Notes: generated by a model not told the origin, from the letters alone. 64,000 nucleotides of DNA from Chthoniobacteraceae bacterium (GCA_040081625.1 JBEBGD010000003.1:17865-81864); one strand, 5' to 3'; shown: positions 27,166 to 43,543, counted from the first letter of the stretch. Made by a program: numbers and translations.

Positions 27166-30100
27166 CTATTGGCTCACCTTCGCGCGCATGAACCGCGGTG
27201 TGCCGCCGCTGGCCGGGACCGAGTCGCGCACGCGGAGCGTGGTGGGCGAGTTTTCCTCGATGATGAGGCCGCCGCTGCTCCAACTCGCGGGCGCTGAAAG
27301 ATCGCTCGTCGCCAGCACCTCGTAGGTGATGTCGGTGGCGGCGGGATTCTTCGCGACGGAGAGGCGCAGGAAAATGTCGGGGCCGACGGCGGCAAGGTCG
27401 GTCACGACCGGGTTGGTGTTGGCGCTGCCCGGGTCGGTGCCGAATGCATATTCGGCCAGCGTGCAGAACCCGTCGCCATCGATGTCCGCGAGCGGCCCGG
27501 CGACCGCGGGGTTGTTCGCCTCCGCTCCGAATTGAGCAAAACGCCACGCGTCGATCGGCAGGTCTTGCAGCGTCAGCGCGACGGTCGGCGGCGCGGGAAG
27601 GTGATAGCCCGGATTCGCGGAGAGTGTGACGGAGACTGTCTCATCGCCCTCGGCGATGGTGTCCGCTTGCGGAGTGACGAAGATCTCCGCGGACGATGCA
27701 CCCGCAGGGATGACGAGGGAGCCGGGGAGGGCGACGAAGTCGGCGGAGTTCGCCGTGCCGCTGCTGGTGTAATAGACGGTGAGCGGCCCATCGAGCGCGC
27801 TGTCGCGGGAGACGATGATCTGCCCTGCCTGCACGCCGGCCTCGCTGGCGGGCACGCCTGCGACCGGTGCGAGCGTGGCGAACTGCACCTGAACCTGCAC
27901 CTCGTCGAAGCTGACGACCTCGCCGTCGTCGGCGGTGAGGCGCAGCGTGTAGTCGCCCTCGGCGGGGAAGCTCGCGGTGGTGGCCCGTGCGGCGGGATCC
28001 AGGAACGCGGCCGCCGCGGGGCCGCTGACTTGCGACCACTGCGTGCTGAGTTCGCCAGCGCCCGCATCAAATGCGGTGCCGGCGAGCGCCTTGAACGCCG
28101 CGCCCGGCACGGTCGATGTCGGCGCGGCATCGACGAGCGGCCCGGTGTTCTCCGGCGCACCGGTGACGCGCACGTCGGTGAACAAACCGCGCGCAGGCCG
28201 GGTGGTGTTGCCGCTGGTGACGGCGATGCCGGCGCGCAAAGTCGAGGCGAGCGCAATCGTCTGCGACGTGCCGACCTGCGTCCACGTGACCTTGTCCACT
28301 GAGTGCTCGGCGGTGAAAAGATCTCCGACGCGCCGCACGCGCAGCCAGCGCGGGCCAGGCGGCAGGCTGCTCGACGCCGTCGTCGCCATGCCGCCGACCG
28401 TGGCCCGGTAGATCCACGCGACGCTGCTCGTGGACACAAAAGTGAAAGCGACGAAACGCGAATTCGCGGCGGTGCTTTCGCGCAGCATCACTCCGAGCCG
28501 CGAACTGCCGAACGCACCGTCCACGCCCTCGAATCGCGCCACGATTTCGCCGTCGCCTTCCATCTCCGTGTGGGCGAAGTGGAATGAATCGCTGGTGCTC
28601 GTAATGCTCGAACCGCTGCCCTGGTTTTGCACGAAGCCTTCGCGCACGTCGTCGGCGCCGGTGGCGTTCGTGCCGGTGATGCCGATGTCGCCGCTGGTCC
28701 ACGGACTCGTGCCGGGCGCGACGACGACCGCGACTTCCGCGGAGCCTGATTGCAGCGCCACATCGGTCGCCGTGCATCGCAGCACGTAGCGGCCTCCGGC
28801 GGAAAACTTCGCCGTCGTCCCGGGCGCTCCGTTGTCTCCGAAAGTCGCGACGCCCGGTCCGCTCGCCATCGACCAGACGCTCGTGACCGAGCCCGGCGCG
28901 CCGTCATCGCTGACGAGTGCGTTGAGCATCAGCCCGATGCCCGCGGGCAGTGCGATTTCCGATTTCGCCGGGCTGGCGATGCGCACGGTGGGCGGATGAT
29001 CGGTGCCCGAGTCGAGGATGCTCAGCGCCGCATTCCCGGTGCCGGCGATGGAAAACTTCGTCGAGGGCAGCACGGTGATGATCGCGGTCTCGGTGCCTTC
29101 CACCGCGGCGTCGGTCAGCGGCGTGAGCGTGCGTGTGATCGAGCGCTGGCCGGCGCTGAGCGTCGCGGCGGTCGAGATTGCGTTGAAGTCGGCGCCCGAA
29201 GTCGCGGTTCCTGCGATGGCGAGATTGACCGTGAGCGCTGCGGTGAGCGGGCCGGTGCGCGAGATCGTGACGAATGCCGGCTCGCCGCCTTGCTCGTGAG
29301 CGACGGGATCGGTCGCGGCGATGCTGACGCGCGGTTCATTGTCGCGGATGAAGAGCGTGTGGTAGCTGCCGCTGCTGGTCAGGCCGGCGTTGGAGGCGTA
29401 GGCGATCTTGAGAGTGAGGTGTTCCTCCATTTCGGGCAGCAAGTCGTCCACGACCGTGGTGGAGATGTTCTTCTGCGTCTCGCCAGGCGCGAAGGTGAGC
29501 GTGCCGCCGACGAGGTTCGTATCGACGCCGCTGCCCGTCGCGCTGTTCGTGTCGATGATGTAATCGACGACGACGGGATTGACCGGGTCTGCGGCGGAGA
29601 GGACGACGGGGATCGCGAACGGCGCATCGCCCTCCGTTTTCACCGTGCTCCGCGAGGCGAAGGACGCGGTGCGCGCGAAGCCGGTCGTTTCATTGTCGGT
29701 GACGATCAACGAAGCGCTGCCGCTTTCGATGCTGTAACTGCCGGGCAGGATCGTCACGACGATCGTCTCCGCGCCTTCGGCGAGCGAGTCGTCGATGCCT
29801 GCGAGGTCCACGCTTACGCTTGATGCGAGGTCGGGGATCGTCGCGGTGCCCGGGAGCGCGGTGTAGTCCGCACCGGCGGTGGCTGTGCCGCTCAACTGAT
29901 AGGAAATATTCAGCGCGCCGGCGGTCGTCGCGGAGCCGGTGCTGCCGGTGCGGGATAAGAAAATCTTCGAGGCGCCGCCGTTCTCCGCCATCGTCACCGT
30001 GGTAAAGGAAACGTTGACCGTGTTGGCCTGGTCATCGTCGCGGATGACGAGGGTCGAAGCCGGCTGGAGCACGTCCACCTGGTAGGCTGGGTCTGGCGTG

Positions 30101-33100
30101 AGCGTCAGCGTCACCGTCTCGGCGTCCTCGATCAGCGCGTCGTTGATCGGCACCACCGTGATGGTGGACGAGGTGTTTCTCGCGATGCTGAGCGTGCCGG
30201 TGAGCGTGGCGAAATCGACGCCGGAGGTGGCGGTGCCGCTGATGATGTAGCGCACGATGATGTTGCCCGCGCCCGTGCCGGTGGTGGTGATGCGGAAGGC
30301 GCCGCTGGCGGTCGGTTCGTTGCAGATGCTGTCCGAGACGCCGACCGCGACGACGGTCAGGTCGTTGTCGTTGATGGTGACGGTCGCGAGGTTCGCCGCG
30401 TCGAGAAGCAGGCGCGGATCGTTGCGGAGCTGGAGGATGACCGTCTGCGCGGGTTCGCCGTGCGCGTCGTCCACCGGCACGATGAGGACCGGCGCGCTCG
30501 CCGCGCCGGCGGGGATCGTGATCGTGCCGGGCAGCGGGAGGTAGTCCACGCCGTGCAAGGCGGCGCCGCCGATCGTGTATTCCACGACGAGCGGATTTGT
30601 CGTGTCGCCGGTGCGCGAGATCGAGAAGAGCCCGGTGTCGGCGCCGCCTTCGGTTGCCGTCGCATCCGTGGCTGCGATCGAGACGGTCGGGATGTCGTCG
30701 TCGGCGATTCGGACGATGGCGGAGGAAGGCACGCCGACGCCGTAGAGCGTGCTGGTGCTCACGGTGAGCTGCACGGTCTCCTGGCCTTCGACGAGTGCGT
30801 CGTTCGTGGGATCGATCGTGACGGTGACCGACGCCTCGCCCGCGGGGATCGTCACCGGCGAGGCGATGCTTGCGTAGTCGGTTCCATTCGTCGCCGCGGC
30901 GGTGTTGCTGGTTCCGGCGAGCGCGATGGTGACGTTGAGGGCGCTGTCCACCGGGCCTGTGCGCCGGATTTCAAAGGTGCCCGGATCGCCCGCCTCATCC
31001 GCGTCGCCGTCGAGCGCGACGACCGAGACGCGGCTTGCCGAGCCGTTGGTGCCGGTGTCGTCGATCACCACGTCGGCGCCTGCCTTTCCGGTGATGGTGT
31101 AAGTCGTCCGCGGGATCAGCACCATGCGCAGCACCTCCGGGCCTTCGCGTGTCGTGTCGCTCACGGGAGTAACGGTGATTTCCAGCGTGTCCGAGCCGGC
31201 GGGGATCGTGAACAGTTCGAGCGGCGAGATCGTCGTCGTGTCCGCGGTCGGGCTGAGCGTGTAGTCGCCAGTCGATGCGTCGCCCTGCAGGTCGGTGTAA
31301 ACGACGAGCGCCGCGGTCGTGCTGCCGGTGCGCGTGAGGCGGAAGGTGCCCGGGTTTCCTCCGGTTTCGGCTGCGTCGGCGTCGGTCGCCTCCACCGTCA
31401 CGCGCACCGGCTCGATCGCGGTAAAGTCGCGCCCCGTGGGGCTGGTGCTGCCGGTGACCGCGTAGCTCGCGGGCGTGAACGTGTAGGCGCCGAGCACCGG
31501 CGTGAGCGTGACCGCGCCGGCGGCGAGATTGGTCACGACGTAGTCGCCGTTCGAGTCCGTCCACGCGCCGCGAAAGCTCGTGCCGCTCGATCCGTTCTGG
31601 ATGCGCACCTCGGGCATCGGGTTGCCGATTCCATCGAGCACGCGCCCGCTGGCGGTGAAGGTGGCCGGCGTGCCGACCGTGACGAGCAGCAGCCTGCTCG
31701 TCTCGCCGCCCTTCCGGTCGCTCACGATGCAGCGCACGGCATGGTGGCGCGCGGTGGTGAATTGCTTGCTCGTGTTCGCCGCGTTCGTCCCATACGTCGC
31801 GTCGCCGAAGTCCCAGAAATACGCGAGCGTGTCGCTGTCAGCATCGGTCGCATCGACGGTGAAGCTGACGGTGCCATTGACCGCCGGCGTCGTCGTGTCG
31901 GCCATGAGCGAGTTGATGACGGGCGCGTTGTTGCCGGGAAAATCGCCGGTGTTCACGACCACGTCGATGCTCTCCGGCGTCGTGCCGCCCTTCGCGATGG
32001 GCGTGATGTGAACGCCGCTCTCGCGATCCGAGAAAGTGCGGCCGATGACCACGGGGCCGTCGTTCTTTCCATCGGCGGAGCCGGGCGTCGTGTCGAGGAA
32101 CTGGCCGCCGCGATTGCTGCCCGCCGTGGTTGTGTCGAGATTCTGCCCCCACGCGCTCCAGCCGAGCGCGACGCCGTCTTTGAACCAGCGGTGATCGGCG
32201 TTGTATTTCTGCCGGAACTCGACCCAGTAATCACGATCCGCGTCCTTCGCGATCTTCAGCGCGTAGCGCCGCGCGGGATCGAGCACCGTCTGGTCCATCG
32301 GGAAGATGCGATAGGTGCCGTTGGCGGAGACGGTGGTGACGACTTCGTTCGGGAGCCAGCCGAGCAGGTTTTTGTGGGGCGTCATGAAGTGGCCCTTGTT
32401 GCCGCTTACCGCGCCGCTGCTGCCCATCACGTCGTAGCTGTTGCCGTATTCGCCGTTCGCGCCGCCGCCGATCACGTCCCTGGCCATGCTAGCGTTCCAG
32501 GCAACCCCTGAGGCCTTTCCCGAATCCCACGAGTTGCCATGCCAGACGCCGACGTTGTGGCCGATCTCGTGGGCGAAGACACCGAGGCTCGTGCTCTTGA
32601 GCCACACATTCGATCCGCCCACGCTGCCCAGCCCGCCGAAGCTGCCCGGACCGCCGGTGTAGATGACCGTGTAGTGCGAGAAGTTGTCCGGGTTGTAGCC
32701 CATGCGCCGCGCGGCGTCCTTCGCATCGGTCATGATCGGAGTATTGCTGCCGTTCGCCGTGTAATCCGCGGCATACCACGCCTCCGAGCGCGGCAGGATG
32801 ATGAGCGGCGGCACCGAAGCGAGGTAATAGATCTTCCCGAAACTGATCTCCTGGAAGTAGCTGTTGAGCTGCGAGATCGCAGTCCACGCCGCGGCTTCCG
32901 TCTGCGGCTCCTGCTGGTCGTCGGGAAATGCGAGCCGCATGTAAAGCAGCGTGCGCGGTCCGTTCGCGAAGGAACTTGCCGCCGGCGCCGTGATGCCCGC
33001 CGCTCCGCCCGTGCCGCCTTCGGCCGCGACCATCTCTTCCTCGAAGACGCGGATGTGTCCACCTTCGCACATATAGATCACGCGCTCGCCGACCTGCACG

Positions 33101-33846
33101 ACGTCAGCTTCCGCGCTGACCGGCTCCGCCGGCTCGCTCACCGCCGTCGTCAGCCCGGACACCGGGCACTGCGTCACGCGCTCTGCGTCCGCGGGCGGGA
33201 GCTCGCCCACTTCCAGCACGCGCACCGGGCTCTCCGCGAGCGCCATCACGCGATCGATCGCAACGCCATGCACGGGCACTTGCGAGAGCGAGTTCTGCCC
33301 GGTCCGCCGGCCATAGACAAACGTGCGCCACTCCTCGTCTCCCACTCGCGTGAAGCGCCGCACCACCGGCTCCGCGGGATCGCTGCCGGGCGACACCGCC
33401 TGCACCTCGACATCCGCCGTCGCCTGCACGCGCTTCTCGAGTTGGGCGACGACTTCGGGCGGAAGCTGCCGCCGCACGACCATCGGCACCGCCGTCTCGA
33501 TCGCGCGGCGCGGATCGTCCTGGATGAGTTGCTTGAAAACTGGCCGTCGCGCCTGCGCCTGCCGCACGCCTTCCGCGACCAGCGAGGCTCGCTCAGCGGG
33601 TGCGGCTGCGAGGAAGCGCTGCGTCCACGCGGAGAAGCCGGGCAGAACATCCGCGGTCGGCGCTGGATTCGCGACAACTGCCGATGGAGCACGCGCGATC
33701 ACGCCGGGCCGCGTCTCCGCAGCGGCACTCGCGGCACCTTGCGCAGGCGCCGGTATCTGCGACGCGCGGCGGGCAGTGCGCAGCGCCAGCACGACGCCAG
33801 CGACGAGGGCAACGGAAAGGACGGCGATCAGGATGCGAGAACGCAT
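27166..33846 (-). CDS. Giant (2226 aa) membrane-anchored multidomain protein: metzincin-like protease + PKD + CarboxypepD_reg-like + about 8 Calx-beta + ConA-like lectin module + conserved C-terminal module
   Basis: N-terminal TM anchor MRSRILIAVLSVALVAGVVLAL, the Zn motif HEIGHNVGVWH and a PKD motif FWDFGD. The Calx-beta signature repeats (F.v.RTG......l.V.y...GTAt.G.DY......tIpAG.....v.v.p..D...EG.E.v.l.L). One lectin-like module has W-LRVRR-G...S.D..W. The C-terminus is DIDGDGF..AEYAFGTDPG...RFMRAKVSQ. Confidence 0.9.
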   Translation of the reverse strand: MRSRILIAVLSVALVAGVVLALRTARRASQIPAPAQGAASAAAETRPGVIARAPSAVVANPAPTADVLPGFSAWTQRFLAAAPAERASLVAEGVRQAQARRPVFKQLIQDDPRRAIETAVPMVVRRQLPPEVVAQLEKRVQATADVEVQAVSPGSDPAEPVVRRFTRVGDEEWRTFVYGRRTGQNSLSQVPVHGVAIDRVMALAESPVRVLEVGELPPADAERVTQCPVSGLTTAVSEPAEPVSAEADVVQVGERVIYMCEGGHIRVFEEEMVAAEGGTGGAAGITAPAASSFANGPRTLLYMRLAFPDDQQEPQTEAAAWTAISQLNSYFQEISFGKIYYLASVPPLIILPRSEAWYAADYTANGSNTPIMTDAKDAARRMGYNPDNFSHYTVIYTGGPGSFGGLGSVGGSNVWLKSTSLGVFAHEIGHNVGVWHGNSWDSGKASGVAWNASMARDVIGGGANGEYGNSYDVMGSSGAVSGNKGHFMTPHKNLLGWLPNEVVTTVSANGTYRIFPMDQTVLDPARRYALKIAKDADRDYWVEFRQKYNADHRWFKDGVALGWSAWGQNLDTTTAGSNRGGQFLDTTPGSADGKNDGPVVIGRTFSDRESGVHITPIAKGGTTPESIDVVVNTGDFPGNNAPVINSLMADTTTPAVNGTVSFTVDATDADSDTLAYFWDFGDATYGTNAANTSKQFTTARHHAVRCIVSDRKGGETSRLLLVTVGTPATFTASGRVLDGIGNPMPEVRIQNGSSGTSFRGAWTDSNGDYVVTNLAAGAVTLTPVLGAYTFTPASYAVTGSTSPTGRDFTAIEPVRVTVEATDADAAETGGNPGTFRLTRTGSTTAALVVYTDLQGDASTGDYTLSPTADTTTISPLELFTIPAGSDTLEITVTPVSDTTREGPEVLRMVLIPRTTYTITGKAGADVVIDDTGTNGSASRVSVVALDGDADEAGDPGTFEIRRTGPVDSALNVTIALAGTSNTAAATNGTDYASIASPVTIPAGEASVTVTIDPTNDALVEGQETVQLTVSTSTLYGVGVPSSAIVRIADDDIPTVSIAATDATATEGGADTGLFSISRTGDTTNPLVVEYTIGGAALHGVDYLPLPGTITIPAGAASAPVLIVPVDDAHGEPAQTVILQLRNDPRLLLDAANLATVTINDNDLTVVAVGVSDSICNEPTASGAFRITTTGTGAGNIIVRYIISGTATSGVDFATLTGTLSIARNTSSTITVVPINDALIEDAETVTLTLTPDPAYQVDVLQPASTLVIRDDDQANTVNVSFTTVTMAENGGASKIFLSRTGSTGSATTAGALNISYQLSGTATAGADYTALPGTATIPDLASSVSVDLAGIDDSLAEGAETIVVTILPGSYSIESGSASLIVTDNETTGFARTASFASRSTVKTEGDAPFAIPVVLSAADPVNPVVVDYIIDTNSATGSGVDTNLVGGTLTFAPGETQKNISTTVVDDLLPEMEEHLTLKIAYASNAGLTSSGSYHTLFIRDNEPRVSIAATDPVAHEQGGEPAFVTISRTGPLTAALTVNLAIAGTATSGADFNAISTAATLSAGQRSITRTLTPLTDAAVEGTETAIITVLPSTKFSIAGTGNAALSILDSGTDHPPTVRIASPAKSEIALPAGIGLMLNALVSDDGAPGSVTSVWSMASGPGVATFGDNGAPGTTAKFSAGGRYVLRCTATDVALQSGSAEVAVVVAPGTSPWTSGDIGITGTNATGADDVREGFVQNQGSGSSITSTSDSFHFAHTEMEGDGEIVARFEGVDGAFGSSRLGVMLRESTAANSRFVAFTFVSTSSVAWIYRATVGGMATTASSSLPPGPRWLRVRRVGDLFTAEHSVDKVTWTQVGTSQTIALASTLRAGIAVTSGNTTRPARGLFTDVRVTGAPENTGPLVDAAPTSTVPGAAFKALAGTAFDAGAGELSTQWSQVSGPAAAAFLDPAARATTASFPAEGDYTLRLTADDGEVVSFDEVQVQVQFATLAPVAGVPASEAGVQAGQIIVSRDSALDGPLTVYYTSSGTANSADFVALPGSLVIPAGASSAEIFVTPQADTIAEGDETVSVTLSANPGYHLPAPPTVALTLQDLPIDAWRFAQFGAEANNPAVAGPLADIDGDGFCTLAEYAFGTDPGSANTNPVVTDLAAVGPDIFLRLSVAKNPAATDITYEVLATSDLSAPASWSSGGLIIEENSPTTLRVRDSVPASGGTPRFMRAKVSQ
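32539..32571 (-). other. Metzincin zinc-binding motif HEIGHNVGVWH in giant protein 1
   Basis: Codons read on the minus strand (cacgagatcggccacaacgtcggcgtctggcat). All three His residues, the catalytic Glu and the Gly are present. Confidence 0.85.
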
Positions 33847-33994: not shown

Positions 33995-36900
33995 CTACTG
34001 GCTCACTTTCGCGCGCATGAACCGCGAGCCGCCGCTGCTCATCGGCATCGAGTCGCGCACCCGCAGCAGTGTGCTCGTGTTCTCCTCGATGATGAGTCCG
34101 TCGCTGCTCCAGTTCATCGGAACGGTCATGCCGCTGGTCGCCTCGACTTGAAAAGTCACGCCGCTCGCGTCCGGGTTTTTCGGGATCGCGAGGCGGAGAA
34201 ACTTGTCGGGCCCGATCGTCGCCTCGTCGAGCGTCCACGGCGCGGCATCCATCACGCCTGGAGACAGGCCGACGGCCCACTCGAGGAAATTCGTGAATCC
34301 ATCGTGCTCGGGATCGGCGCCGGGCGCGGCGTTCGGGTCGTTCGGGTCGCCGCCGAAGTTCTGCGCCTGCCACTGCTGGAACGCGCTCTCGTAGTGCGTC
34401 ATGAGCGCATCGCGGAAGGTGACGATGCCCGTATCATCCGCGCGCAGGCGCAGCGTGTAGTCGCCGAACTGCGGGAAGCTCGCGCTCGTGTCCACCGCGC
34501 TCGTGTTGCCGAACATCACGTTGCCGGGTCCGGCCGCCTTGCTCCACGTCGTCGCGAGCGAAGTCGGCGCGGGATTCCCATCGTCGATCACCGTCGCGTC
34601 GAGTGTCGCGTCGCCGACGGTGGTGAAAGGCAGCGCGCTCAGGTCGATGTCCGGCCCGATGTTCAGCGGCTCGATGGTCAGGCGGGTGAAAGTGCAGGTG
34701 TTCAGCGTGCCGGTCGCGCCGCTCGCGTTGTTCACGTAGAAGCCGACCCAGACGGGCGTCGTCATGATGACCGTCTGCGCCTGGCCGATCTGCGTCCACG
34801 CATTCGGGCCGTTCGTCGCGACGTTGTGCGTGGCGCGGTAGCCGGTGATGCTGTTGCCACGGCGCACGATGCGCATCCAGTTGCCAGCCGCGATACCGCT
34901 GGGCACGCCGCCACCGCCGCCGGCGGCGATGCTCGTCCAGTAGTAGCCGCTGTAAGCGCCGGTCGGCATTCGTCCGAGATGGAGCTGCGCGCCGCTCTCG
35001 ATGCTCTCCGCGACGCGGATGCCGCCGCTGCTGCTGCCCGCGCCGGAGCTGTAGGTGTTCAGCCGCGCGGTGAAGACCATGTCGCCGTAATACTGCCAGC
35101 CGTAGAAGTAGCCGGTCGTCGGTCCGGCGAGCGTGTAAGTGGTGCCGTCGAAGCTGCCGCTGCCCGCCAGGTTCGGCGCGGTGCCGCTGTCCTCATTCAC
35201 CAAAGCGGGACCTCCCGGCGCGGGCGTGAGCGTCACGTTGTCGAAGATCGCGGTGGCGCTGCCGGCGGTGCTGTTGTTCGTCGTCGTGAGGCCGTAGTGC
35301 GCGTTCGTGTTGAGCAACGGGATGACGACCGGACTGCCCACCGCAGTCCACGCGCCGGGAGCGCCGCTGACATCCGGCGCGTAGCTGGCGCTGACTTCGT
35401 TCGTGGTCGCGTTGCGCTCGAGCTTGAGCCAGCACGGCAGCGCCGGCGCGGTCGCGCCCACGCTCGTGTCGTTGCCGGAGGTGGCGCGGGTGCGGAACTG
35501 CAAGCCGGTGCCCGGCACGTAGCCGAGCACGGCGCGAGTCGAGCCGCGTGCGAGGGAATCGCGGATCGTCACGCCCGCGAGCGCGGTGGCGACGTTCAAG
35601 CTCGTCAGCCGCGCGACGACGCTGCCATCGCCTGTCGCAGCGCGGACCATGATGTGCGCCTGGTCGGTGCTCGTGGAGGCGTAGCCGGCGCCGGTGCCCG
35701 TGACGCTGAACAGCCCGCCGTATTCGAGCCCCTGCCCGCGGCGCGCGGAAGACGGCCCGAGATCCTGCGTGATCCAGTTCGACGCCACGAGCCCGCTGCC
35801 GGCCACGATGGTGATTTGATCGCTCGCGGTGAACTGCGTGTCGCTCGCGGTGATGCGCAGCACGTAGGTGCCCGGCGCGGAGAAGGTGACGGCGGTCGTC
35901 GCGGCGCTGGGCGATTCGATGCTCGCGGTGCCTGGGCCGCTCACGCAGCTCCAAGTCGTCGTGAGTGGAGCGGGGAAGCCGTCATCGCTCACGCTCGCGC
36001 TGACGATGACGCCATTCGCGGCGGCGATGAGCGGCCCCTGCGTCGTCGGGCTGTTGATGAAGACGGTGGGCGGGTTGTCGTTGTCCGTGATCGCCACGTT
36101 GTCGAACGACTGTGCGCCGATGTCGTAGCTGCCGGTGTTGAGGGAAATCGTCACGTCCTCCGGCCCCTCGGTCGCCGCATCGTCCACGGGTGCGATGTTG
36201 ACGACCTTCGACGACTCGCCCCCGACAAACGCGACCGTTGCCGCCACGTTCGCGTAGTCGGTCGTGTTCGTCGCCGTGCCGGAGATCGTGAGATTAACCG
36301 TCAGCGACCCCGTCGTCGGCGCGGTGCGCGTGACGGTGAACTGCCCGGGATTGCCCGCCGTTTCGGACGCATCGGGATCGTTCGCCACGATCGTGACGGT
36401 GCTGCGGTCGTCATCGGCGATGGTCACGGTCGCGTTCGCTGGCGTGCCGAGCGTGTAGGCAGCGTTGGCGGTGAGGGTCAGGATCACGGTCTCATTCCCT
36501 TCGTTCGTCGCGTCCTGGAGCGGCGTCACCGTCACGGTCGCGTTCGCCTGACCGTCGAGGATGGTGGCGTTGCCAGGCGATGCGATGGCCGTGTAGTCCG
36601 TCCCGCTCGCAGCCGTGCCGCTGCGCGTGAAGTTCACCACGAGATTGCCCGCGAGCGAACCCGCGCGCGTTATCGTGAACGTCCCCGTGTCGCCGCTCTC
36701 CGCCGCGCTCGCGTCGGTCGCGACGATGTTCACGGTCGGGAAGTCGTCGTCGGTGATCGTGATCGTGTGCGCGCTCGCGCTTCCGAGGTTCAAGTTGGCC
36801 GGAGCTTGCAGCGTGACGGTGAAGTTCTCCGCTGATTCGACCGCGGCGTTGTCCGTGATGGGCACGGCGATGATCTTCACGCTCTCGCCCGCCGCGAAGT

Positions 36901-39900
36901 TCAGCGTTCCGGTCGTGGTCGTGTAATCGCCGGGCTGCGTCGCGCTGCCGTCGGCGGTGATGAAATCCACGCTGCACGGCGCGGTGGCCGGCGCGCTCAG
37001 TGCGACCGCGATCTGCACCGTGCCCGCATTTTCCACCACGCTGCTCGCGCCAGTCGCGAAGCCCACGTAGGGCTGCGCGGGCGGGGTGTCGTTGTCGAGG
37101 ATCGTGTAGCCGTGGTAGCTGAACGTGCCGAGTCCCGCGCCGAGGGGATTGATGAGCTGGATCGTGATGAGGTTGTCCGGCTCGTCCATCGTGTCGTTCA
37201 CGACGGTGAACGTGAGGTTCTTCGTCGTCTGGCCCGGGTCGAACGTGAGCACGCCGGGCGGCAGCACGAAATCCACGCCGGAGCCGAAGGCCGTGGTGTT
37301 GCTCTGCAAACGATAGCGCTGCTCCATCGCGCCGCTTTTCACCCACCCCGTGTGAACGCCGCGCGCATAGTGCGTGCGATCGTCGCGCACCATCACGCCC
37401 GCCTGCGCGCCGTTCGCACCGCCGGTGAGCGAGGTCACGCGCGCGATCAGGGTGAAGTCGCCCGTGACCTCCGTGCTGGGAAAATGCGCCTCGTCGCTGC
37501 CGGTGGCGATGCCCGCGCCGCTGCCGGTCACCGTCCACACACCGGCGTTGTGGCTTTCGTCGCCCTGCGCGTTAACAAAGCCGATGGTGCGGCCGCCGAG
37601 CGTGGTCAGCGGGCTCCCGTTGAGCGTCACATTGTCAAAGGTGGCCGTGGCGAGCGCTCCGTCGCTGGCGGCGGAGACCGCGAGGCCGGCGAACACCTTC
37701 GGTGCGAAGGCGATGCCCGGTGCCGTGCCGAAATCCGTCCAGCTCACGCCATCGCGGGAGAAGCTCTGGGTGAAGACACTGCCCGCGCGGACGGTGCGCG
37801 CCCACATCGGCGGCACATGCCCGGTGAAGGCGCTGCTCAGCGTGGCTGTAGCGCCGGCACCGGTGCGGTGGAGCGTGTAGAAGTTTCCAGCGGCGACGCC
37901 GGTGCCCAGTGAGGAGGCGTGAACAGCGTTGCCCGCCGTCGAGGCGCGCAGCATCACTCCCGCGCGTGAACTCGTGGAGCCGCTGTTGCCCACGCTGGTG
38001 ATCCGGGCGGTGACGGTGCAGTTCGCGGAGCCGTTGACCGGAAGATACACGAAGCGGAAATTGTCCGCCGTGCTGTTGGTGAGGCCGTTGCCGGAGTTCG
38101 TGAAAGTGTAAACGCCGGACGAGGACGAACTGCCGCCCGTGACCGTGCCAATACTCGCCGCCACCTCCGCGCCGGTGCTGCCGCCTGAGAGGTTGCTGAC
38201 GCTGAAGTTATCGATGGTGGTCGTGTATTGCGTCGTCGATCCAGGCGCGAAAACGATGCCTGCGAGGTAGCTCGTGTCGCCGAGGCCGGAAACCGCCACC
38301 GCGCTGCCTCGCTCCGTCCAAATCTGCCCGTCGTGCGACTGGAAAAAGGCCACAGTAGTTCCCGTCTTCACGAGCCGGACCCAGTGCGGCACGGCGCTGC
38401 TTGTGTTGGACGCACTCGATCCCGTGCTGAAGGCGCCCGTCTGATATTCCACCGTCACCGGCGACGCCTGCGCGGAGGAGAGCACCACGGGGATGTTCAC
38501 GGTCGTCACGCTCTCGCTGCCGGTGGAGCTGGGTGCCTGGAAGCCGACGGTCGCGGTGACGGTGTCGTTGTCGGTGATATACATCACCGCGCCGACGCCG
38601 CGCGCATAGGCGCCGGGCGCGAAGTCGAACAGGATCGTCTCGGTGCCCTCGAAGGTCGTGTCGTTCGCGACGGTGATGGGCACATCCACGCCCGTCGCGC
38701 CCGCCGGGATCGTGACGCTGGCCGGCGCGGTGTAATCCACGCCGCCGCCCGTCGCGGTGCCGCTGTAGCTGCAATTCACCGTGACCGCCGAGGTCGTGCT
38801 GCCGAGGCGGGAAACGTAAAACTTCACCGGCGTGGTCGTCGCGCCCTCGGTGAAGCTGATCGCGCCGCTGGTGCCGACCTGCGTGTCCACGACGAGCGTG
38901 TTCACGTTGTCATCATCGCGCAGCCAGGCCGTGGCGCTCGTTGTGGGCGCGTAGGTTTGATAATCGACAGTCGGCGAGAGCGTGACGGAGATGGTCTCGA
39001 AATCCTCTGGCTCCGTGTCGTTCACCGGCCAGCAGATCAGATCGAATGTCGGTGCGTTCTGCGGGATCGTCGCGCTGGCAGGCGAGCCGGAAGTGTCCAC
39101 CGACCGTGCCTCGTAAACGCTGCCGCTGTCGCCGCTGACCCACACGTTATCCGCGTTCGCACCGGACACGGCTTGGAAGGACGGGTTGTTTGTCGTCACG
39201 CGGGATGAAGACCATGAGGAGCCGTCCAGCGTGCGCAGCAGCATACCGCTTGATCCGCTGATCCACACGCTGCTGGCATCGCTGCCCCAGATGCCGTTGA
39301 GATCCTGCGTCACGCCGGAGGTCTGCGCCGTCCATGTGGTGCCGTTGCCTTTCAAGATGACGCCGCCGACGCCCACGGCCCACAGATTCGTGGCGGAGCT
39401 GCCCCAGACGCCGCGCAGGTTGCCCGTGGTGCCGGAGGTCTGCGCGGCCCACGCGGTGCCGTTCCATTTCAAAATGGTGCCGGCATCGCCCACGGCCCAC
39501 ACGTTGTTCGCGTCACTCCCCCAGACGGCGTAGAGGTTGGTCGTCGTGCCGGAGGTTTGAGCTGACCAACTTGTGCCATCCGTCGAGCGGCGGATCGTGC
39601 CGGTGTTGCCCACGGTCCACAGGCTCGTCGCACTGCTGCCCCAAATGCCGCGCAGGGTGTTCGTCGTGCCGGAGGTTTGAATCACCCATGCGGAGCCGTC
39701 GCCTTTAACGATGCGCCCGGAGTCACCCACGGCCCACAGGCTCGTGGCGCTGCTGCCCCAGATGCCGCGCAGGTTGTTGGTGGTGCCGGAAGTCTGCGTC
39801 GCCCACGTCGCGCCGTTTCCTTTCAGGATGCGGCCGGCATCGCCCACCGCCCATAGGTTCGTGGCATCGGCGATCCACAGGCCGCGCAAGCTGGTGGTGA

Positions 39901-42900
39901 TGCCGGAGGTCTGCGCGCCCCAGGCCGTGAGTTTGTAGTCTGTGGCCTGATCGGCCGTGCCGCCGACCGACAACTCGATGGGAATCGCCGTGCCGCTCGA
40001 GCCGCCGCGCACGGTGAGACGGAAGTTCGCGCTCGTGCTGCCCTCAACGGCGTTCACGGTGTTCACCACGTCGATGTAAGGCGTGTCGCCGGCGGCGTCG
40101 GTGATGTTCACCGTCGCGCTGTTGCCCGTGCCGAGGATGTAATTGGTCGCGCTCGCGCCGAGCGTGAGCACGCACTGCTCGACGCCCTCGCCCACGCCGT
40201 CGAAACGCGGCACGATCGTGACCGCCGCCGAATCCTGGCCCGCGGGGATCTGGATCAAGCCGGGCATCCACTCGAAGTCCACGCCGTGCAGCGCCATCAC
40301 ACCGCTGGCGTTCGTTCCGGAGAATGCATAGTAGATCGTGAGCGGCTGGCTCGTGTCGCCGGTGCGCGAAACGAGGAACGTCCCCGTGTCGGCGGCGGCG
40401 CCGGGGATGCTCAGGTCCACCTCCGTGGCCGTCGTGTCCGTCGCGGTGACGCTCACCGTTTGCAGATCGTCGTCGTAAATGCTCGCGGTGCCCGTCGTGG
40501 CCAGCGTGTCGATGATGTAAGCCGCGTTCGTGCTGAGCGTGAGGATCGCCGTCTCGATCGATTCGGAGAGCGAGTCATCCAGCGGTGCGACTTCGACCGT
40601 CGCGGAAGCCAAGCCGGACGGGATCGTCACGCTGCCGCTCAGCGCGGTGAAATCGCTCCCGCTCGTCGCCGTGCCGGTCACGGCGTAATTCACCGTCAGC
40701 CCCGCCGCGGTGCTTCCCGTGCGCGAGACCGTGAAGACCGCGGGCGACGCACTGTTTTCCGTCGTCGTGGCCGTCGTTGCGGCGAGGCTCACTTTCGGCA
40801 GCAAGGTGTCGTCGTCCTCGATCACGACCATGGCGCTGGACGCGGAGCCGACGAGGTAGCCGTTGCCCGGCCCGAGTTGCAAAATGACCGTCTCCGGTCC
40901 TTCGCTCGACGCATCGACGACCGGCGTCACGATGATGTCGAGCATGTCGGAGTCCGCCGGGATCGTGAAGGTGCTGAAGCCTTGCGAACCGGTCACATAG
41001 TCCGGCGTGAAGGTGTAGTCGGTCGTCTTCGTCGCGCCGCCGAGAGCGGTGTTCACATTCACGACGAGATCCTGAGAGGTGTCGCCCGTGCGCGTGACTC
41101 GGAACGCGCCCGGCGTGACCGGCGCGAGTTCGTTCGCGCTCGGAGCCGGCGCGGAGATCGTCACCACGCTTTGCGCAGAGGCCTCGAACTCCGCGCCGCT
41201 GAAGCTCGGCCCGACGACGATGCTGTTATTAAACAGCTCGCTGAACGTGTAGCCGTAGAGCAGCGGCGTGAGCGTGTAGGTGTTCGCGCTCAGGTTCGGG
41301 ATCGTGAAGTAGCCATCCGCGTCCGAGATCACGCCGTTCGCGTTGTTCGCGGTGACGACGACATCTTGCAGCCCCTGCCCGAGCAGCGTCACGCGGCCGC
41401 TGATGGTGAAGGTCGCCGCCGAGCCCACGGTGATGAGCTTGTTGCGCGTCACCGTGCCGCCCTTCATGTCGCTGGCCGTGCAGGTGACGATGAACGTGCC
41501 CGCCGCAGTGAACTGCCGCGTGATCACGTTCGAGTTCGGCGACACGATCTGCGTGCCGCCGCCGAAATGCTGCCAGTTGAAAGCCAGCGGATCGCTGTCG
41601 GGATCGTTGGCCGTGGCGGTGAAGGTCACCGTGCCATTCAGCGGGATCACCTCCGCGCTGGCGGCGAGCGACATCGTCGGCGGCTGATTGCCGGGGGAGC
41701 TGCCGAGGTTCACTTGCACGTCGAGATAACGCGGACTGTCACTTGCCGCCACGGCGGTGACGTAGATGCCGCTCTCGGTGTCGCCAAACGTGGCCCCGAG
41801 CGAGATGGGCGCGTCGGTTTTTCCGTAAGGTGAGCCGTTGGTCGTGTCGATGAGCTGGAAATTTCCGCCGCCGCCGCTCGGGAAGCGCCAGCCGAAGACG
41901 AGGCCGTTTTTCGCGAAGGGATTGCTGTCGAAAAGCGATCGCACCATGCCCCAGTAGGTGCGCTGCACGTCCTTCTGGATCGTCAGCGCATAGCGTTTCG
42001 ACGCATCGAGCGAGCCCTGATCAAACGCATGGATGCGGTAGAGCCCGCTCTGAGTCACGGGCTGCAAAAAGGCGCCCGGCAGCCAGCGGATCTGGTTTTT
42101 TCCCTGCGCATTGTAGTGGCCCGGCGGCGTGCCCGCGCCGCCCATCACATCGTAGCTGTCGCCGTATTCGTTGTTCGCGCCGTTGCCGATGCTGCTCGTG
42201 CCTGCGGTGTCCCAGAAATTCGAGTGCCCGAGCCCGAAGCAGTGCCCGATCTCGTGCGCCCACAGGCTCACGCTATCGCTGCGGCACCACACCGTGCTGC
42301 CGCCCGCGAGCCCGCCGTAACTGCCGGGGCCGCCATTGTGCCGCATCACCACGCAGTCGTAGTCGCTGGAGTCGAAGCCGAGCTTCCGTGCTTCGTTCCG
42401 CGCGTCCACATGCGAGATGCTCGTGCCGCCGATGTCGCCGCCATTGCTCGTGTCGCGGTTCACATACCACGCTTCGTTGTGCGGCAGCTTCACCGGCGGT
42501 GTGACGACGCCGACGAGCGACAGCCGGCCATACGAAGCCTTCGCGTAATGATCCGCCACGTCGCGCAGCGTCGTATAGAGCGCCGCCTCGGTGGAAGGGA
42601 TCGCGTTTTGATCCGCGTAGGTCGTCGGGATCACGAGCACTTTCACCTGACCAAGCGCGGGAGTCGGGGTGGACGGCAGGATGCCGGAAAACGCGAACGA
42701 ACCGCCCGTGACGCCTTCGCCGTAGAGGATGGTCTCGTTTTGCATCGCGATGTGCGAGCCGTCGCAGAACGTGATGATCTCCACCGGCGTCTCGACCGCG
42801 GGCAAACTCTCCGGCACCACGCTCGGCACGCTCGCGGGATCGAGCACGATCTTCCCCGACACCGGGCACTCGGACACGACCGGCTTGCCCGGCGGCATGT

Positions 42901-43543
42901 TTTCCCCCGCCTCGAGCCGCCGCGTCGGTTGGTCGCTGACCGCAAATTCCGAGTCCACCGCCACGCCGTTCACAAACGCGCCCGCCGTCCACGTGAGCTT
43001 CTGCTCGCGCTGGCCATACACGTAGGCGCGGTAAGTCCCGCCGCCCTTCAGCTCGACCTCGCGATACGTCGGCACCGGCGGATCACCGGGATTCAGCGGC
43101 ACGCCCTGCATCACACGCAGCGCGCCGATGTCGTTGATGCGCCGTTCGAGCTGCGCGAGCACGATCGGCGGAAGCTCCTGTCGCACGACCATCGGCACCG
43201 CCTGCTCGATCGCCGCGCGCGGGTCGTCCTGGATGAGTTGCTTGAAGACCGGACGCCGCTCGCTCGCGAGCCGCACGCCTTCCGTCACGAGCGCCTGCCG
43301 GTGCTCGCGCGGCGTGGCGAGAAAGCGACCGGTCCAGTCGCTGAAAGCGGGCACCGCTTCGCCGCCCTGCACGACCGGCTGCGCGGCCGGTCGCGCCTTT
43401 GCTACTTCCATCCGCCCGGAGTCCAGCGCGGTGGTCAGGATCGCGGGTGCCTGCGGAGCAACGGCTCGATCTTCCCAAAGCAGAAAAACGACAGCGCCAA
43501 AGACGATGGCAACGAGTGAAGCGAGGAGAAGGCGGTAGCGCAC
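33995..43543 (-). CDS. Giant (3182 aa) paralog of the preceding gene: metzincin-like protease + PKD + CarboxypepD_reg-like + about 9 Calx-beta (two split by insertions) + seven-blade propeller-like repeat + multiple ConA-like lectin modules + conserved C-terminal module
   Basis: TM anchor MRYRLLLASLVAIVFGAVVFLLW. It has the same pre-domain as the paralog (RPVFKQLIQDDPRAAIEQAVPMVVRQELPP), the Zn motif HEIGHCFGLGH, PKD and Calx-beta signatures, and repeats AQTSGTT.NLRGIWGSSAT.LWAVGD.G. Lectin modules carry W.RLVKTG / WLKLERN / WMRIVRRG. The C-terminus ends ...RFMRAKVSQ. Confidence 0.9.
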   Translation of the reverse strand: MRYRLLLASLVAIVFGAVVFLLWEDRAVAPQAPAILTTALDSGRMEVAKARPAAQPVVQGGEAVPAFSDWTGRFLATPREHRQALVTEGVRLASERRPVFKQLIQDDPRAAIEQAVPMVVRQELPPIVLAQLERRINDIGALRVMQGVPLNPGDPPVPTYREVELKGGGTYRAYVYGQREQKLTWTAGAFVNGVAVDSEFAVSDQPTRRLEAGENMPPGKPVVSECPVSGKIVLDPASVPSVVPESLPAVETPVEIITFCDGSHIAMQNETILYGEGVTGGSFAFSGILPSTPTPALGQVKVLVIPTTYADQNAIPSTEAALYTTLRDVADHYAKASYGRLSLVGVVTPPVKLPHNEAWYVNRDTSNGGDIGGTSISHVDARNEARKLGFDSSDYDCVVMRHNGGPGSYGGLAGGSTVWCRSDSVSLWAHEIGHCFGLGHSNFWDTAGTSSIGNGANNEYGDSYDVMGGAGTPPGHYNAQGKNQIRWLPGAFLQPVTQSGLYRIHAFDQGSLDASKRYALTIQKDVQRTYWGMVRSLFDSNPFAKNGLVFGWRFPSGGGGNFQLIDTTNGSPYGKTDAPISLGATFGDTESGIYVTAVAASDSPRYLDVQVNLGSSPGNQPPTMSLAASAEVIPLNGTVTFTATANDPDSDPLAFNWQHFGGGTQIVSPNSNVITRQFTAAGTFIVTCTASDMKGGTVTRNKLITVGSAATFTISGRVTLLGQGLQDVVVTANNANGVISDADGYFTIPNLSANTYTLTPLLYGYTFSELFNNSIVVGPSFSGAEFEASAQSVVTISAPAPSANELAPVTPGAFRVTRTGDTSQDLVVNVNTALGGATKTTDYTFTPDYVTGSQGFSTFTIPADSDMLDIIVTPVVDASSEGPETVILQLGPGNGYLVGSASSAMVVIEDDDTLLPKVSLAATTATTTENSASPAVFTVSRTGSTAAGLTVNYAVTGTATSGSDFTALSGSVTIPSGLASATVEVAPLDDSLSESIETAILTLSTNAAYIIDTLATTGTASIYDDDLQTVSVTATDTTATEVDLSIPGAAADTGTFLVSRTGDTSQPLTIYYAFSGTNASGVMALHGVDFEWMPGLIQIPAGQDSAAVTIVPRFDGVGEGVEQCVLTLGASATNYILGTGNSATVNITDAAGDTPYIDVVNTVNAVEGSTSANFRLTVRGGSSGTAIPIELSVGGTADQATDYKLTAWGAQTSGITTSLRGLWIADATNLWAVGDAGRILKGNGATWATQTSGTTNNLRGIWGSSATSLWAVGDSGRIVKGDGSAWVIQTSGTTNTLRGIWGSSATSLWTVGNTGTIRRSTDGTSWSAQTSGTTTNLYAVWGSDANNVWAVGDAGTILKWNGTAWAAQTSGTTGNLRGVWGSSATNLWAVGVGGVILKGNGTTWTAQTSGVTQDLNGIWGSDASSVWISGSSGMLLRTLDGSSWSSSRVTTNNPSFQAVSGANADNVWVSGDSGSVYEARSVDTSGSPASATIPQNAPTFDLICWPVNDTEPEDFETISVTLSPTVDYQTYAPTTSATAWLRDDDNVNTLVVDTQVGTSGAISFTEGATTTPVKFYVSRLGSTTSAVTVNCSYSGTATGGGVDYTAPASVTIPAGATGVDVPITVANDTTFEGTETILFDFAPGAYARGVGAVMYITDNDTVTATVGFQAPSSTGSESVTTVNIPVVLSSAQASPVTVEYQTGAFSTGSSASNTSSAVPHWVRLVKTGTTVAFFQSHDGQIWTERGSAVAVSGLGDTSYLAGIVFAPGSTTQYTTTIDNFSVSNLSGGSTGAEVAASIGTVTGGSSSSSGVYTFTNSGNGLTNSTADNFRFVYLPVNGSANCTVTARITSVGNSGSTSSRAGVMLRASTAGNAVHASSLGTGVAAGNFYTLHRTGAGATATLSSAFTGHVPPMWARTVRAGSVFTQSFSRDGVSWTDFGTAPGIAFAPKVFAGLAVSAASDGALATATFDNVTLNGSPLTTLGGRTIGFVNAQGDESHNAGVWTVTGSGAGIATGSDEAHFPSTEVTGDFTLIARVTSLTGGANGAQAGVMVRDDRTHYARGVHTGWVKSGAMEQRYRLQSNTTAFGSGVDFVLPPGVLTFDPGQTTKNLTFTVVNDTMDEPDNLITIQLINPLGAGLGTFSYHGYTILDNDTPPAQPYVGFATGASSVVENAGTVQIAVALSAPATAPCSVDFITADGSATQPGDYTTTTGTLNFAAGESVKIIAVPITDNAAVESAENFTVTLQAPANLNLGSASAHTITITDDDFPTVNIVATDASAAESGDTGTFTITRAGSLAGNLVVNFTRSGTAASGTDYTAIASPGNATILDGQANATVTVTPLQDATNEGNETVILTLTANAAYTLGTPANATVTIADDDRSTVTIVANDPDASETAGNPGQFTVTRTAPTTGSLTVNLTISGTATNTTDYANVAATVAFVGGESSKVVNIAPVDDAATEGPEDVTISLNTGSYDIGAQSFDNVAITDNDNPPTVFINSPTTQGPLIAAANGVIVSASVSDDGFPAPLTTTWSCVSGPGTASIESPSAATTAVTFSAPGTYVLRITASDTQFTASDQITIVAGSGLVASNWITQDLGPSSARRGQGLEYGGLFSVTGTGAGYASTSTDQAHIMVRAATGDGSVVARLTSLNVATALAGVTIRDSLARGSTRAVLGYVPGTGLQFRTRATSGNDTSVGATAPALPCWLKLERNATTNEVSASYAPDVSGAPGAWTAVGSPVVIPLLNTNAHYGLTTTNNSTAGSATAIFDNVTLTPAPGGPALVNEDSGTAPNLAGSGSFDGTTYTLAGPTTGYFYGWQYYGDMVFTARLNTYSSGAGSSSGGIRVAESIESGAQLHLGRMPTGAYSGYYWTSIAAGGGGGVPSGIAAGNWMRIVRRGNSITGYRATHNVATNGPNAWTQIGQAQTVIMTTPVWVGFYVNNASGATGTLNTCTFTRLTIEPLNIGPDIDLSALPFTTVGDATLDATVIDDGNPAPTSLATTWSKAAGPGNVMFGNTSAVDTSASFPQFGDYTLRLRADDTGIVTFRDALMTHYESAFQQWQAQNFGGDPNDPNAAPGADPEHDGFTNFLEWAVGLSPGVMDAAPWTLDEATIGPDKFLRLAIPKNPDASGVTFQVEATSGMTVPMNWSSDGLIIEENTSTLLRVRDSMPMSSGGSRFMRAKVSQ
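39100..39925 (-). repeat. Coding tandem repeat, about 123-bp period x 7 (propeller-like blades) inside giant gene 2
   Basis: There are seven roughly 41-aa units with consensus (A/T)QTSGTT.NLRG(I/V)WGSSA(T)(S/N)LWAVGD.G.I.K..G..W. Recurrent DNA strings such as gcccacggcccaca and ctgccccagatgccgcgcag are visible in 39.1-39.9 kb. Confidence 0.85.
42224..42256 (-). other. Metzincin zinc-binding motif HEIGHCFGLGH in giant protein 2
   Basis: Read on the minus strand (gcgcacgagatcgggcactgcttcgggctcgggcac). It lies at the same relative position (aa about 430) as in the paralog (aa about 426). Confidence 0.85.

Follow-up and report, generated by a model that had tools for sequence, protein, structure and literature searches.

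Two adjacent giant genes in a 64,000-nucleotide stretch of DNA from a Chthoniobacteraceae bacterium (GCA_040081625.1, JBEBGD010000003.1:17865-81864; hereafter the window) are best explained overall as encoding extracellular zinc endopeptidases, which are probably exported by the Sec pathway, docked on the cell through their C-terminus and activated by removal of their N-terminal part. Both products, here called A and B (Table 1), run from a hydrophobic N-terminal segment and a conserved pre-domain through a metzincin-like catalytic head and a long stalk of PKD, Calx-beta and concanavalin A (ConA)-like modules to a shared C-terminal (CT) module, i.e., in the domain order that an earlier note on this DNA had read from the sequence.

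The two giant same-strand open reading frames (ORFs; 2226 and 3182 aa) described in that note are present and lie 148 nt apart. Their G+C content at third codon positions (GC3, 0.86–0.88) matches that of the surrounding genes, including housekeeping genes, in a window of ~66% G+C, and promoter and terminator scans gave no excess over shuffled controls. Protein A is 100% identical to the public entry MEQ1858582.1, [quoted passage not shown], from a 123-kb contig of a metagenome-assembled genome (MAG), and “Calx-beta domain-containing protein” is the only name that public records give to such proteins. BLASTP aligned A and B colinearly at 31% identity across ~2,200 aa, with 41% identity between the heads and 50% between the tails, in line with the proposal of one shared architecture with conserved termini, a common C-terminal module and diversified centres. 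Judged from these values, A and B are old paralogs and not the products of a recent duplication, and since even their heads are only 41% identical, they probably differ in target.

The catalytic head and its N-terminal neighbours

Both heads carry the HExxHxxGxxH zinc motif and the GGPGS(F/Y)GGL block reported earlier. Across 74 family members, the residues H430, E431, H434 and H440 (B numbering) are kept in every sequence, the Met-turn residue M467, located 27 residues after the third His and within D.MG, is kept in 73, and the EYG...D.MG block is invariant. Direct assignment of the head to a family by Pfam, NCBIfam or PDB sequence search was tried and set aside, as it returned sub-threshold matches only and transitive and profile–profile evidence was required. 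Specifically, A and B fall below the curated cutoff of every peptidase model in Pfam and NCBIfam, their matches to Reprolysin_4/5, M66, M10, M57 and the NCBIfam M6 domain being restricted to the zinc motif or far below cutoff. Peptidase_M66 scored 16.6–18.5 bits (cutoff 20.6) over ~40 residues around the zinc motif, and the M6 domain model (TIGR03296) matched both ends of the catalytic region at 29.3 and 32.9 bits (cutoff 110.8); the third zinc ligand is His in A and B and Asp in M6 peptidases. Neither protein matched Peptidase_M11 (PF05548, cutoff 21 bits) at E ≤ 0.01.

Relatives that align over the whole head do pass the M11 model, i.e., P0177 (37% identical, 29.1 bits) and P0181 (33% identical, 35.7 bits). 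Among 37 diverse head relatives, Pfam matches were to M66 in 18, Reprolysin_5 in 14, M11 in 12 (best E = 6e-9) and M6 in one. A profile of 13 heads aligned by hhalign with P0024, a bona fide M11 protein (74 bits on PF05548), at 98.5% (E = 3.9e-15, 280 columns), and this alignment takes in the first beta-strand and the zinc helix, then the Met-turn region and the beta-domain after it (profile positions 232–551). Foldseek searches with an AlphaFold2 model of the head (mean predicted local distance difference test score, pLDDT, 66.5) retrieved ADAMTS4/5, ADAM33 and snake-venom adamalysins with probability 1.00 and E = 4e-4 to 1e-3, at low TM-scores for a multi-domain model of moderate quality, along with PAPP-A and, over 359 columns, the InhA2 zymogen. 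In sequence searches of the PDB, the head profile found its best match, a weak one, in AMUC_1438 (E = 0.013, 39 positions), with which the heads share the stretch G.G.N..YGD after the third His; AMUC_1438/OgpA were not among the top 50 Foldseek hits. Because relatives pass the M11 model, the profiles align at 98.5%, the structural neighbours are metzincins and the zinc residues are invariant, we read the head as an active-looking metzincin of a divergent clade related to gametolysin (M11) that no curated model captures, which upholds the earlier “gametolysin/reprolysin-like” label.

The pre-domain (~225 aa, close to the ~200 aa first estimated) always directly precedes the catalytic domain in this family, and it has no Pfam or NCBIfam match. 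Its AlphaFold2 model has pLDDT values of 90–95 for model residues 1–80 and 64–94 for residues 81–210, and a ~22-residue disordered linker connects it to the catalytic domain. We considered C226 (in CPVSG) as an obligatory cysteine switch and disfavoured it: 53 of 74 members have all three of C226, C260 and H264 (B aa 226–264, window 42752–42868, with an equivalent region in A), and 12 have none of them. Since the three residues are lost together, a structural disulfide or metal site fits better than a single-cysteine switch, and the pattern suggests that they form such a site jointly.

Ahead of the pre-domain, A and B both have the N-terminal hydrophobic segment expected from the earlier reading (18–19 residues). 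Basic residues followed by an uncharged hydrophobic run (12–23 residues, median 17) with a charged residue directly after it were found in 73 of 75 family members, and by these features the segment resembles a signal-anchor more than it does a classical cleaved signal peptide. In four Myxococcales members (L055, L056, L064 and L071), a clear lipobox (LVGC, LASC, AVGC) takes the place of the hydrophobic segment, and a fifth (L076) has the lipobox VLGC by eye.

Stalk modules and the C-terminal module

Behind the head, each protein has a series of Calx-beta domains (Pfam PF03160, cutoff 27; 169.5 bits in A and 235.8 in B). A hidden Markov model (HMM) built from the repeats themselves recovered eight units in A and nine in B, the same counts as proposed before, with intact units scoring 88–124 bits. 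PKD families exceeded their cutoffs (PF18911, PF00801, PF22352) in both proteins, with PKD_4 at 41.8, PKD at 31.9 and K319L at 46.6 bits in A, and K319L at 48.9 bits in B; the latter is a whole-protein score (best stretch aa 2510–2579), and a second match in B at aa ~2979–3038 is sub-threshold (19.6 bits). The PKD domain at B aa 623–710 has no match of its own and is assigned by colinearity with PKD_4 of A (aa 639–717) and with the orthologs P0001 and P0005, which have PKD and CarboxypepD_reg. For the carboxypeptidase-regulatory-like domain (PF13715/PF13620, cutoff ~32), A gave no match and B gave 21.9 bits, and the aligned region of relatives reaches E = 8.9e-9. The earlier assignment thus stands above cutoff for PKD, and remains sub-threshold for the carboxypeptidase-regulatory-like domain (21.9 vs. 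32.2 bits in B).

The modules previously called concanavalin-A-like lectins belong to a ConA-like fold family by their match to DUF1349 (PF07081, cutoff 32.4), which we take to be a member of the ConA-like clan: B scored 38.9 bits as a whole protein, and the single module of A 17.9 bits. With a module HMM of length 179 built from four clean modules, the module of A is clearly homologous to those of B (258 bits), and the two modules at B aa 2596–2777 and 2785–2960 scored 225 and 203 bits. This yields one module in A, as had been counted, and four module-equivalents in B (three ordinary and one split in halves), where the earlier count of at least five had taken the split halves separately. The word “lectin” is here a fold-family assignment with sugar binding putative, and had been too strong as a statement of function; a ConA-like profile found no relative among PDB sequences at E ≤ 1.

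Two of the Calx-beta domains of B are interrupted by inserts. Excising aa 1206–1486 or aa 1703–2079 in silico restored a full-length Calx-beta domain in each case (107.6 and 105.3 bits), and both inserts sit in or just past the “GTA..G.DY” loop region of their hosts (window 37085–40081). The first insert consists of seven propeller-like repeats of ~39 aa, found only in B as the earlier reading had it (Tandem Repeats Finder: 117-nt period, 5.2 copies, 70% matches); they are compatible with a seven-bladed propeller, match no Pfam family and gave only a weak match (E = 4e-4) to an unrelated repeat protein among PDB sequences. In the second insert, the N-half and C-half of module X, when joined, give one full-length match (91 bits, HMM positions 6–172 of 179), and the arrangement implies circular permutation or three-level nesting, with either one circularly permuted module enclosing a second or both modules permuted. 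An N-half ConA-like module followed by a Calx-beta C-half also occurs in P0025, a 58%-identical relative. Such nested inserts and a permuted ConA-like module are clean natural cases of domain insertion and circular permutation for studies of protein architecture.

A loop of 12 residues in the CT module (~130 aa) follows the EF-hand pattern DxDxDGxxNxxE; its D34 and E41 never vary, and ≥90% of sequences retain D30, G35 and N38. The module was modelled with high confidence (AlphaFold2, pLDDT 95.3) as two helices on a six-strand Ig-like sandwich, and Foldseek against the PDB returned generic Ig-like sandwiches only (best E = 0.014). The CT segments matched no Pfam family at E ≤ 1, no relevant NCBIfam family and no Por_Secre_tail model. 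The C-terminal domain of type IX secretion substrates has an Ig-like sandwich fold; CT resembles it as a ~100-aa sandwich by model, and differs from it by an extra helical part with the EF-hand loop and by the lack of a Por_Secre_tail match. Of 59 database hits, 53 have CT at most 8 residues from the C-terminus, as do 54 of the 61 giant relatives that carry it; the consensus end is ...RF[MFV]R[LV][KR]V.., and CT also terminates fragments with varied upstream Pfam domains (BACON, He_PIG, Laminin_G_3 and others). Separately, we observed CT at the end of ORFs with no detected protease head in related genomes (L012:2-4888, L049:1938-4964, L052:2004-5030, L069:5573-8635, L079:3530-9028 and L040:3-1655), several of which run off the contig end.

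Other lineages carry other modules at this position. All five Myxococcales members of the head family (L055, L056, L064, L071 and L076) end in GGCGC, a hydrophobic helix and an Arg tail, and four of the five exceed the curated cutoff of the MYXO-CTERM models (TIGR03901/TIGR03382). MYXO-CTERM is cleaved by myxosortase and anchors proteins on the cell surface, as shown experimentally, with type II export predicted (PMC11980579). By direct reading, A and B lack MYXO-CTERM (Cys motif, transmembrane helix and Arg-rich tail): CT occupies the same position within one protein family without these elements. With an N-terminal lipobox and a C-terminal MYXO-CTERM, the Myxococcales members are predicted to be lipid-linked at both ends before processing. 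A further conserved C-terminal module, ...GTTGVALVE[VI]YEVP, ends the Opitutae-type members (L058, L066, L074 and L080), and scored a sub-threshold 23.5 bits on the “DVUA0089 family” model of NCBIfam (cutoff 29). The C-terminal position in the head family thus holds lineage-specific terminal modules, one of which is a proven surface anchor.

Table 1 Coordinates of the features of genes A and B and of the neighbouring sulfatase genes (window positions; residues in aa).
Feature	Residues	Window position	Strand	Basis or remark
Gene A	1-2226	27166-33846	minus	ATG start, 2226 aa, uninterrupted ORF (ORF list and translation)
A, N-terminal segment	1-23	33778-33846	minus	Basic n-region and 18-residue hydrophobic segment
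A, pre-domain	67-290	32977-33648	minus	Family alignments
A, M11-like metzincin and beta domain	291-640	31927-32976	minus	NCBIfam M6 domain match sub-threshold
A, zinc motif HEIGHNVGVWH	426-436	32539-32571	minus	Direct reading
A, PKD, then CarboxypepD_reg-like region	639-810	31417-31932	minus	PKD_4 41.8 bits; second domain by colinearity with B only
A, seven tandem Calx-beta	814-1614	29005-31407	minus	88-124 bits each
A, K319L-like PKD, ConA-like module (1721-1900), K319L-like PKD	1625-1987	27886-28974	minus	Module HMM 258 bits
A, eighth Calx-beta	1987-2096	27559-27888	minus	97.9 bits
A, CT module	2095-2226	27169-27564	minus	Loop DIDGDGFCTLAE; ends RFMRAKVSQ; 50% identical to CT of B
Gene B	1-3182	33995-43543	minus	GTG start, 3182 aa, uninterrupted ORF (ORF list and translation)
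B, N-terminal segment	1-24	43472-43543	minus	Basic n-region MRYR and 19-residue uncharged hydrophobic segment; export signal or signal-anchor; direct reading
B, pre-domain	62-285	42689-43360	minus	Helical bundle and beta part, then disordered linker; family alignments
B, M11-like metzincin and beta-rich domain	286-622	41678-42688	minus	hhalign, Foldseek; Pfam matches all sub-threshold
B, zinc motif HEIGHCFGLGH	430-440	42224-42256	minus	Met-turn Met467 downstream
B, PKD, then CarboxypepD_reg-like	623-790	41174-41677	minus	CarbopepD_reg_2 at aa 714-766, 21.9 bits (cutoff 32.2)
B, Calx-beta 1-3	792-1151	40091-41170	minus	Repeat-built HMM 100-106 bits each; Pfam Calx-beta
B, Calx-beta 4, split	1155-1546	38906-40081	minus	Interrupted by insert
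B, seven ~39-aa propeller-like repeats	1206-1486	39086-39928	minus	Within Calx-beta 4; repeat register
B, Calx-beta 5	1553-1660	38564-38887	minus	89.4 bits
B, Calx-beta 6, split	1664-2153	37085-38554	minus	Interrupted by insert
B, ConA-like cassette	1703-2079	37307-38437	minus	C-half of module X, complete module Y, N-half of module X; DUF1349
B, Calx-beta 7-9	2158-2489	36077-37072	minus	91-115 bits each
B, K319L-like PKD, two ConA-like modules (2596-2777, 2785-2960), K319L-like PKD	2500-3045	34409-36046	minus	PF22352
B, CT module	3048-3182	33998-34402	minus	EF-hand-type loop DPEHDGFTNFLE, Ig-like sandwich; ends RFMRAKVSQ
Two sulfatase genes		43697-46543	plus	Divergent from B; Pfam Sulfatase 133.5 and 194.6 bits

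Topology, working model and alternatives

The bacteria that encode these proteins are diderm. Given that an inner-membrane helix cannot stay on a protein that leaves the periplasm, and that the C-terminal modules of this family include a surface anchor in Myxococcales members, we favour, by analogy, a topology in which the C-terminus is docked on the cell surface, the protease is distal, and the N-terminal segment and pre-domain serve as an export and latency tether. Specifically, the basic and hydrophobic N-terminal segment would drive export, and together with the pre-domain it would keep the zymogen latent at the inner membrane during the stiffening of the Calx-beta rod by Ca2+. A type II-like route would then probably take the protein across the outer membrane, and the CT module would keep it on the cell. 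Loss of the N-terminal segment and pre-domain would activate the protease, which would end at the far tip of a stalk tens of nanometres long (a rough estimate from the number of beta-sandwich modules), with the ConA-like and propeller modules holding glycan-rich targets.

The earlier note had instead proposed a permanent type II N-terminal anchor, with the protease proximal to the membrane, the stalk pointing outward and the ConA-like and CT modules distal. The 18–19-residue hydrophobic run, the charged residues directly after it and the absence of a clean AxA site (B has AVA, then Pro) are what such an anchor would look like, and the Myxococcales lipobox indicates that N-terminal membrane attachment of some kind is conserved. 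Nonetheless, a permanent tether is doubtful and this topology unlikely, since an inner-membrane helix cannot cross the outer membrane with a ~3,000-aa protein made of usually extracellular domain types, and since the family has dedicated, strictly terminal modules at the C-terminus, including the surface anchor MYXO-CTERM in relatives. We also considered that A and B could primarily be adhesins or matrix proteins, i.e., rods for Ca2+-dependent attachment or aggregation whose metzincin acts only in self-processing or release. More than 80% of each protein is non-catalytic and made of the module kinds of giant Ca2+-dependent adhesins, and the central arrays vary among paralogs and orthologs around conserved termini. 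However, the head, with its beta-domain and substrate-side motifs, is the most conserved part across phyla, and it is kept with a Calx-beta count of 0 in Myxococcales, Opitutae-type and Acidobacteriota members. A head that is retained even without the stalk fits a family defined by its enzyme, and a primarily adhesive role seems to us quite improbable.

Secretion by a type I system as a repeats-in-toxin (RTX)-style giant adhesin (LapA, SiiE, MpIBP-like) with an incidental protease domain would account for the giant size, the Ca2+-binding repeats and the acidic Ca2+-binding loop near the C-terminus, and an HlyD-type membrane-fusion gene lies ~5 kb from A (19813–21876). This explanation is very improbable: A and B contain no RTX nonapeptide repeats and no HemolysinCabind match, the Sec-type N-terminus is conserved, and the lipobox and MYXO-CTERM signals of relatives belong to the Sec/type II route, while the HlyD-like gene is fused to GAF domains, stands four unrelated genes away from A and has no ABC or TolC partner nearby. 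We give almost no credence to the idea that the ORFs are decaying pseudogenes or repeat-rich artefacts made or fused by mis-assembly of a metagenome bin. The source is indeed a MAG, and many database relatives are fragmentary or frameshifted. Yet neither A nor B is interrupted, their GC3 is of the coding type, none of the catalytic residues is lost, and full-length B orthologs in independent genomes (L002–L005, L012 and L025) have the same length (3189–3221 aa), domain order and tail, with 11 Calx-HMM hits and CT. At the DNA level, internal repeats are at most ~70% identical, and no near-identical repeats hint at assembly collapse.

Several observations weigh against Sec-exported, C-terminally docked zymogen proteases. 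A and B fail every curated peptidase model, and the AlphaFold2 model of the catalytic part is moderate overall and below pLDDT 50 around the Met-turn. The joint absence of C226, C260 and H264 in 12 of 74 members leaves no obligatory switch, CT is without a recognisable homolog of known function, so that its docking role is argued from position and analogy, and no secretion-system genes adjoin A or B. As for substrate, the similarity to AMUC_1438 (E = 0.013) is confined to ~40 residues, and of 80 loci only 7 have a sulfatase gene no more than 10 kb away. A broader, tentative extension of the model, which we currently regard as unlikely, is that CT is a Verrucomicrobiota-wide sorting or surface-docking domain of an undescribed secretion or attachment pathway, comparable to MYXO-CTERM or the C-terminal domain of type IX substrates, with giant M11-like proteins as its largest cargo, i.e., stalked proteases from which one cleavage would remove both the N-terminal tether and the pre-domain.

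Distribution, genomic context and comparison with known systems

An exhaustive profile search of clusters at 50% identity retrieved 9,226 cluster representatives of the head family at E ≤ 1e-3 and 1,521 at E ≤ 1e-30, and a genome scan gave at least 205 loci in a species-representative genome collection. A word-indexed homolog search had under-reported the family (24 and 49 hits, all ≤ ~1,000 aa), which the exhaustive search and genome scan corrected. The top 150 cluster matches are 314–4,855 aa long (median ~1,740), the match beginning within the first 120 residues in most, and the pre-domain and head occupy residues ~60–690 of proteins of 1,000 to ~4,900 aa. Most loci are from Verrucomicrobiota (Prosthecobacter, Luteolibacter, Chthoniobacteraceae, Opitutaceae, Akkermansiaceae and Pedosphaera), and the others from Archangium and other Myxococcales, a Pyrinomonadaceae genome (Acidobacteriota) and a Cocleimonas genome (a gammaproteobacterium). 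The architecture is not rare.

A Luteolibacter MAG holds the closest species-representative ortholog of A (L036; head identity 76%), and in genera such as Prosthecobacter and Luteolibacter the orthologs came from MAGs only. Conserved tandem pairing, i.e., the pair as a unit, was considered and rejected, as B orthologs have no second head downstream and A-type orthologs none upstream; among the closest loci, L012 alone has a second giant paralog, 4.8 kb upstream, and several MAGs carry at least two paralogs on separate contigs. The two divergent sulfatase genes pointed out in the earlier note do adjoin B, are syntenic in L025 and have a counterpart directly upstream of the head gene in L008, whereas a functional link is weakened by their low frequency across loci.

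Elsewhere the window consists of ordinary chromosomal genes (rpoD, dnaG, zwf, monomeric isocitrate dehydrogenase, transketolase and arginine biosynthesis genes), with a few further features. A small gene of the low-molecular-weight phosphotyrosine-phosphatase/arsenate-reductase type (26665–27114, minus strand) begins 51 nt past the stop codon of A on the same strand and may be co-transcribed with it, with no functional link evident. A single 815-aa ORF (13288–15735, minus) joins a low-molecular-weight phosphotyrosine phosphatase domain to RpiB/LacAB and a complete serine hydroxymethyltransferase; provided that its start is called correctly, such a triple fusion is unusual. The 687-aa product of 19813–21876 (plus) has two GAF domains fused to an HlyD-type membrane-fusion (barrel-sandwich) region, and a scan of neighbouring genes showed neither an ABC transporter nor TolC. 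The transketolase (51869–54388, plus) has a ~185-residue extension before Transketolase_N, which could be a mis-called start or an added domain. Five ORFs with coding-type GC3 matched no Pfam family at E ≤ 1e-4 (21880–23691, minus; 25360–26337, plus; 9289–10551, minus; 54434–55189, plus; and 63036–63998, plus), and one of these, 25360–26337, has an unusually low first-position G+C content of 0.50.

Gametolysin and StcE cleave heavily O-glycosylated proteins. AMUC_1438 is a Tn-antigen-dependent O-glycopeptidase of Akkermansia, a member of the same phylum (PMC9513282). Since the nearest characterised relatives by three weak measures (M11 gametolysin, M66 StcE and AMUC_1438) are all glycoprotein-specific, our best guess is that A and B act as glycoprotein-matrix proteases, for example on algal or microbial cell walls and sheaths or on mucin-like polymers, which is plausible but somewhat short of probable. 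The ConA-like modules in the stalk and the sulfatases here, in L008 and in L025 are indirect leads in the same direction.

In lakes, soils and guts, Verrucomicrobiota abound as degraders of complex glycans, and to our knowledge their extracellular proteases are almost unstudied. The head family is large, its members have not been studied experimentally, and each of these proteins represents an investment of 2,000–4,800 residues. If an active, glycoprotein-directed head does sit on a Ca2+-stiffened stalk, these proteins could be a main means of remote attack on algal or microbial cell walls and sheaths. The CT module, whose position is held by MYXO-CTERM in myxobacterial relatives, could also point to an undescribed surface-sorting route in Verrucomicrobiota.

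Literature searches found no characterised protein with such an architecture and no paper describing any family member, in agreement with the claim that no characterised family is built this way. Gametolysin, a small algal cell-wall lysin, and other M11 members (PF05548) share the HExxHxxGxxH motif and homology through EYGD..D.M..G...H[YF]NA..K.Q..W[LM]P and the following beta-domain, whereas A and B have in addition the ~225-aa pre-domain, absent in P0024, and 1,600–2,500 residues of stalk. StcE/TagA (M66), AMUC_1438 and OgpA, which are secreted proteins of 600–900 aa, are, as A and B are, bacterial metzincins with modules of a glycan-recognising type, and M66 is the commonest Pfam match among head relatives (18 of 37); however, the matches are sub-threshold in A and B, and those enzymes lack the Calx-beta stalk, the pre-domain and the CT module. 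The M6 “thuringilysins” InhA2 and PrtV, the latter containing PKD domains, have the same succession of propeptide, catalytic domain and beta-domains, as reflected in the 359 columns aligned with the InhA2 zymogen, and differ in the third zinc ligand and in a size and stalk that are not comparable.

The eukaryotic modular metzincins ADAMTS, PAPP-A and MMP-23 follow the same layout, in which a pro-domain and a metzincin precede a long C-terminal series of binding modules that sets substrate targeting, and they provided top Foldseek hits; this is an analogy only, given no sequence-level membership and modules of TSR, CUB and LNR type there instead of Calx-beta, PKD and ConA-like here. MMP-23 is a type II N-anchored zymogen that one cleavage both activates and releases, and this provides a precedent for the N-terminal processing suggested for A and B. 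LapA, SiiE, MpIBP and Calx-beta/VCBS adhesins share with A and B thousands of residues of Ca2+-rigidified beta-sandwich repeats and outreaching ligand-binding modules. The LapA/SiiE-type adhesins are, however, exported by type I systems; they have RTX repeats, a secretion signal at the C-terminus and a retention module at the N-terminus, but no protease, in contrast to A and B, which have a Sec-type N-terminus, no RTX repeats and an enzyme as their conserved core. Overall, the principle of a pro-domain and metzincin followed by a train of targeting modules is already well known from ADAMTS, PAPP-A, tolloids, PrtV and StcE, and what appears new or undescribed is a clade of heads that always comes with the pre-domain, the joining of this clade to Calx-beta rods thousands of residues long, the inserts with their nesting and permutation, and the strictly terminal CT module.

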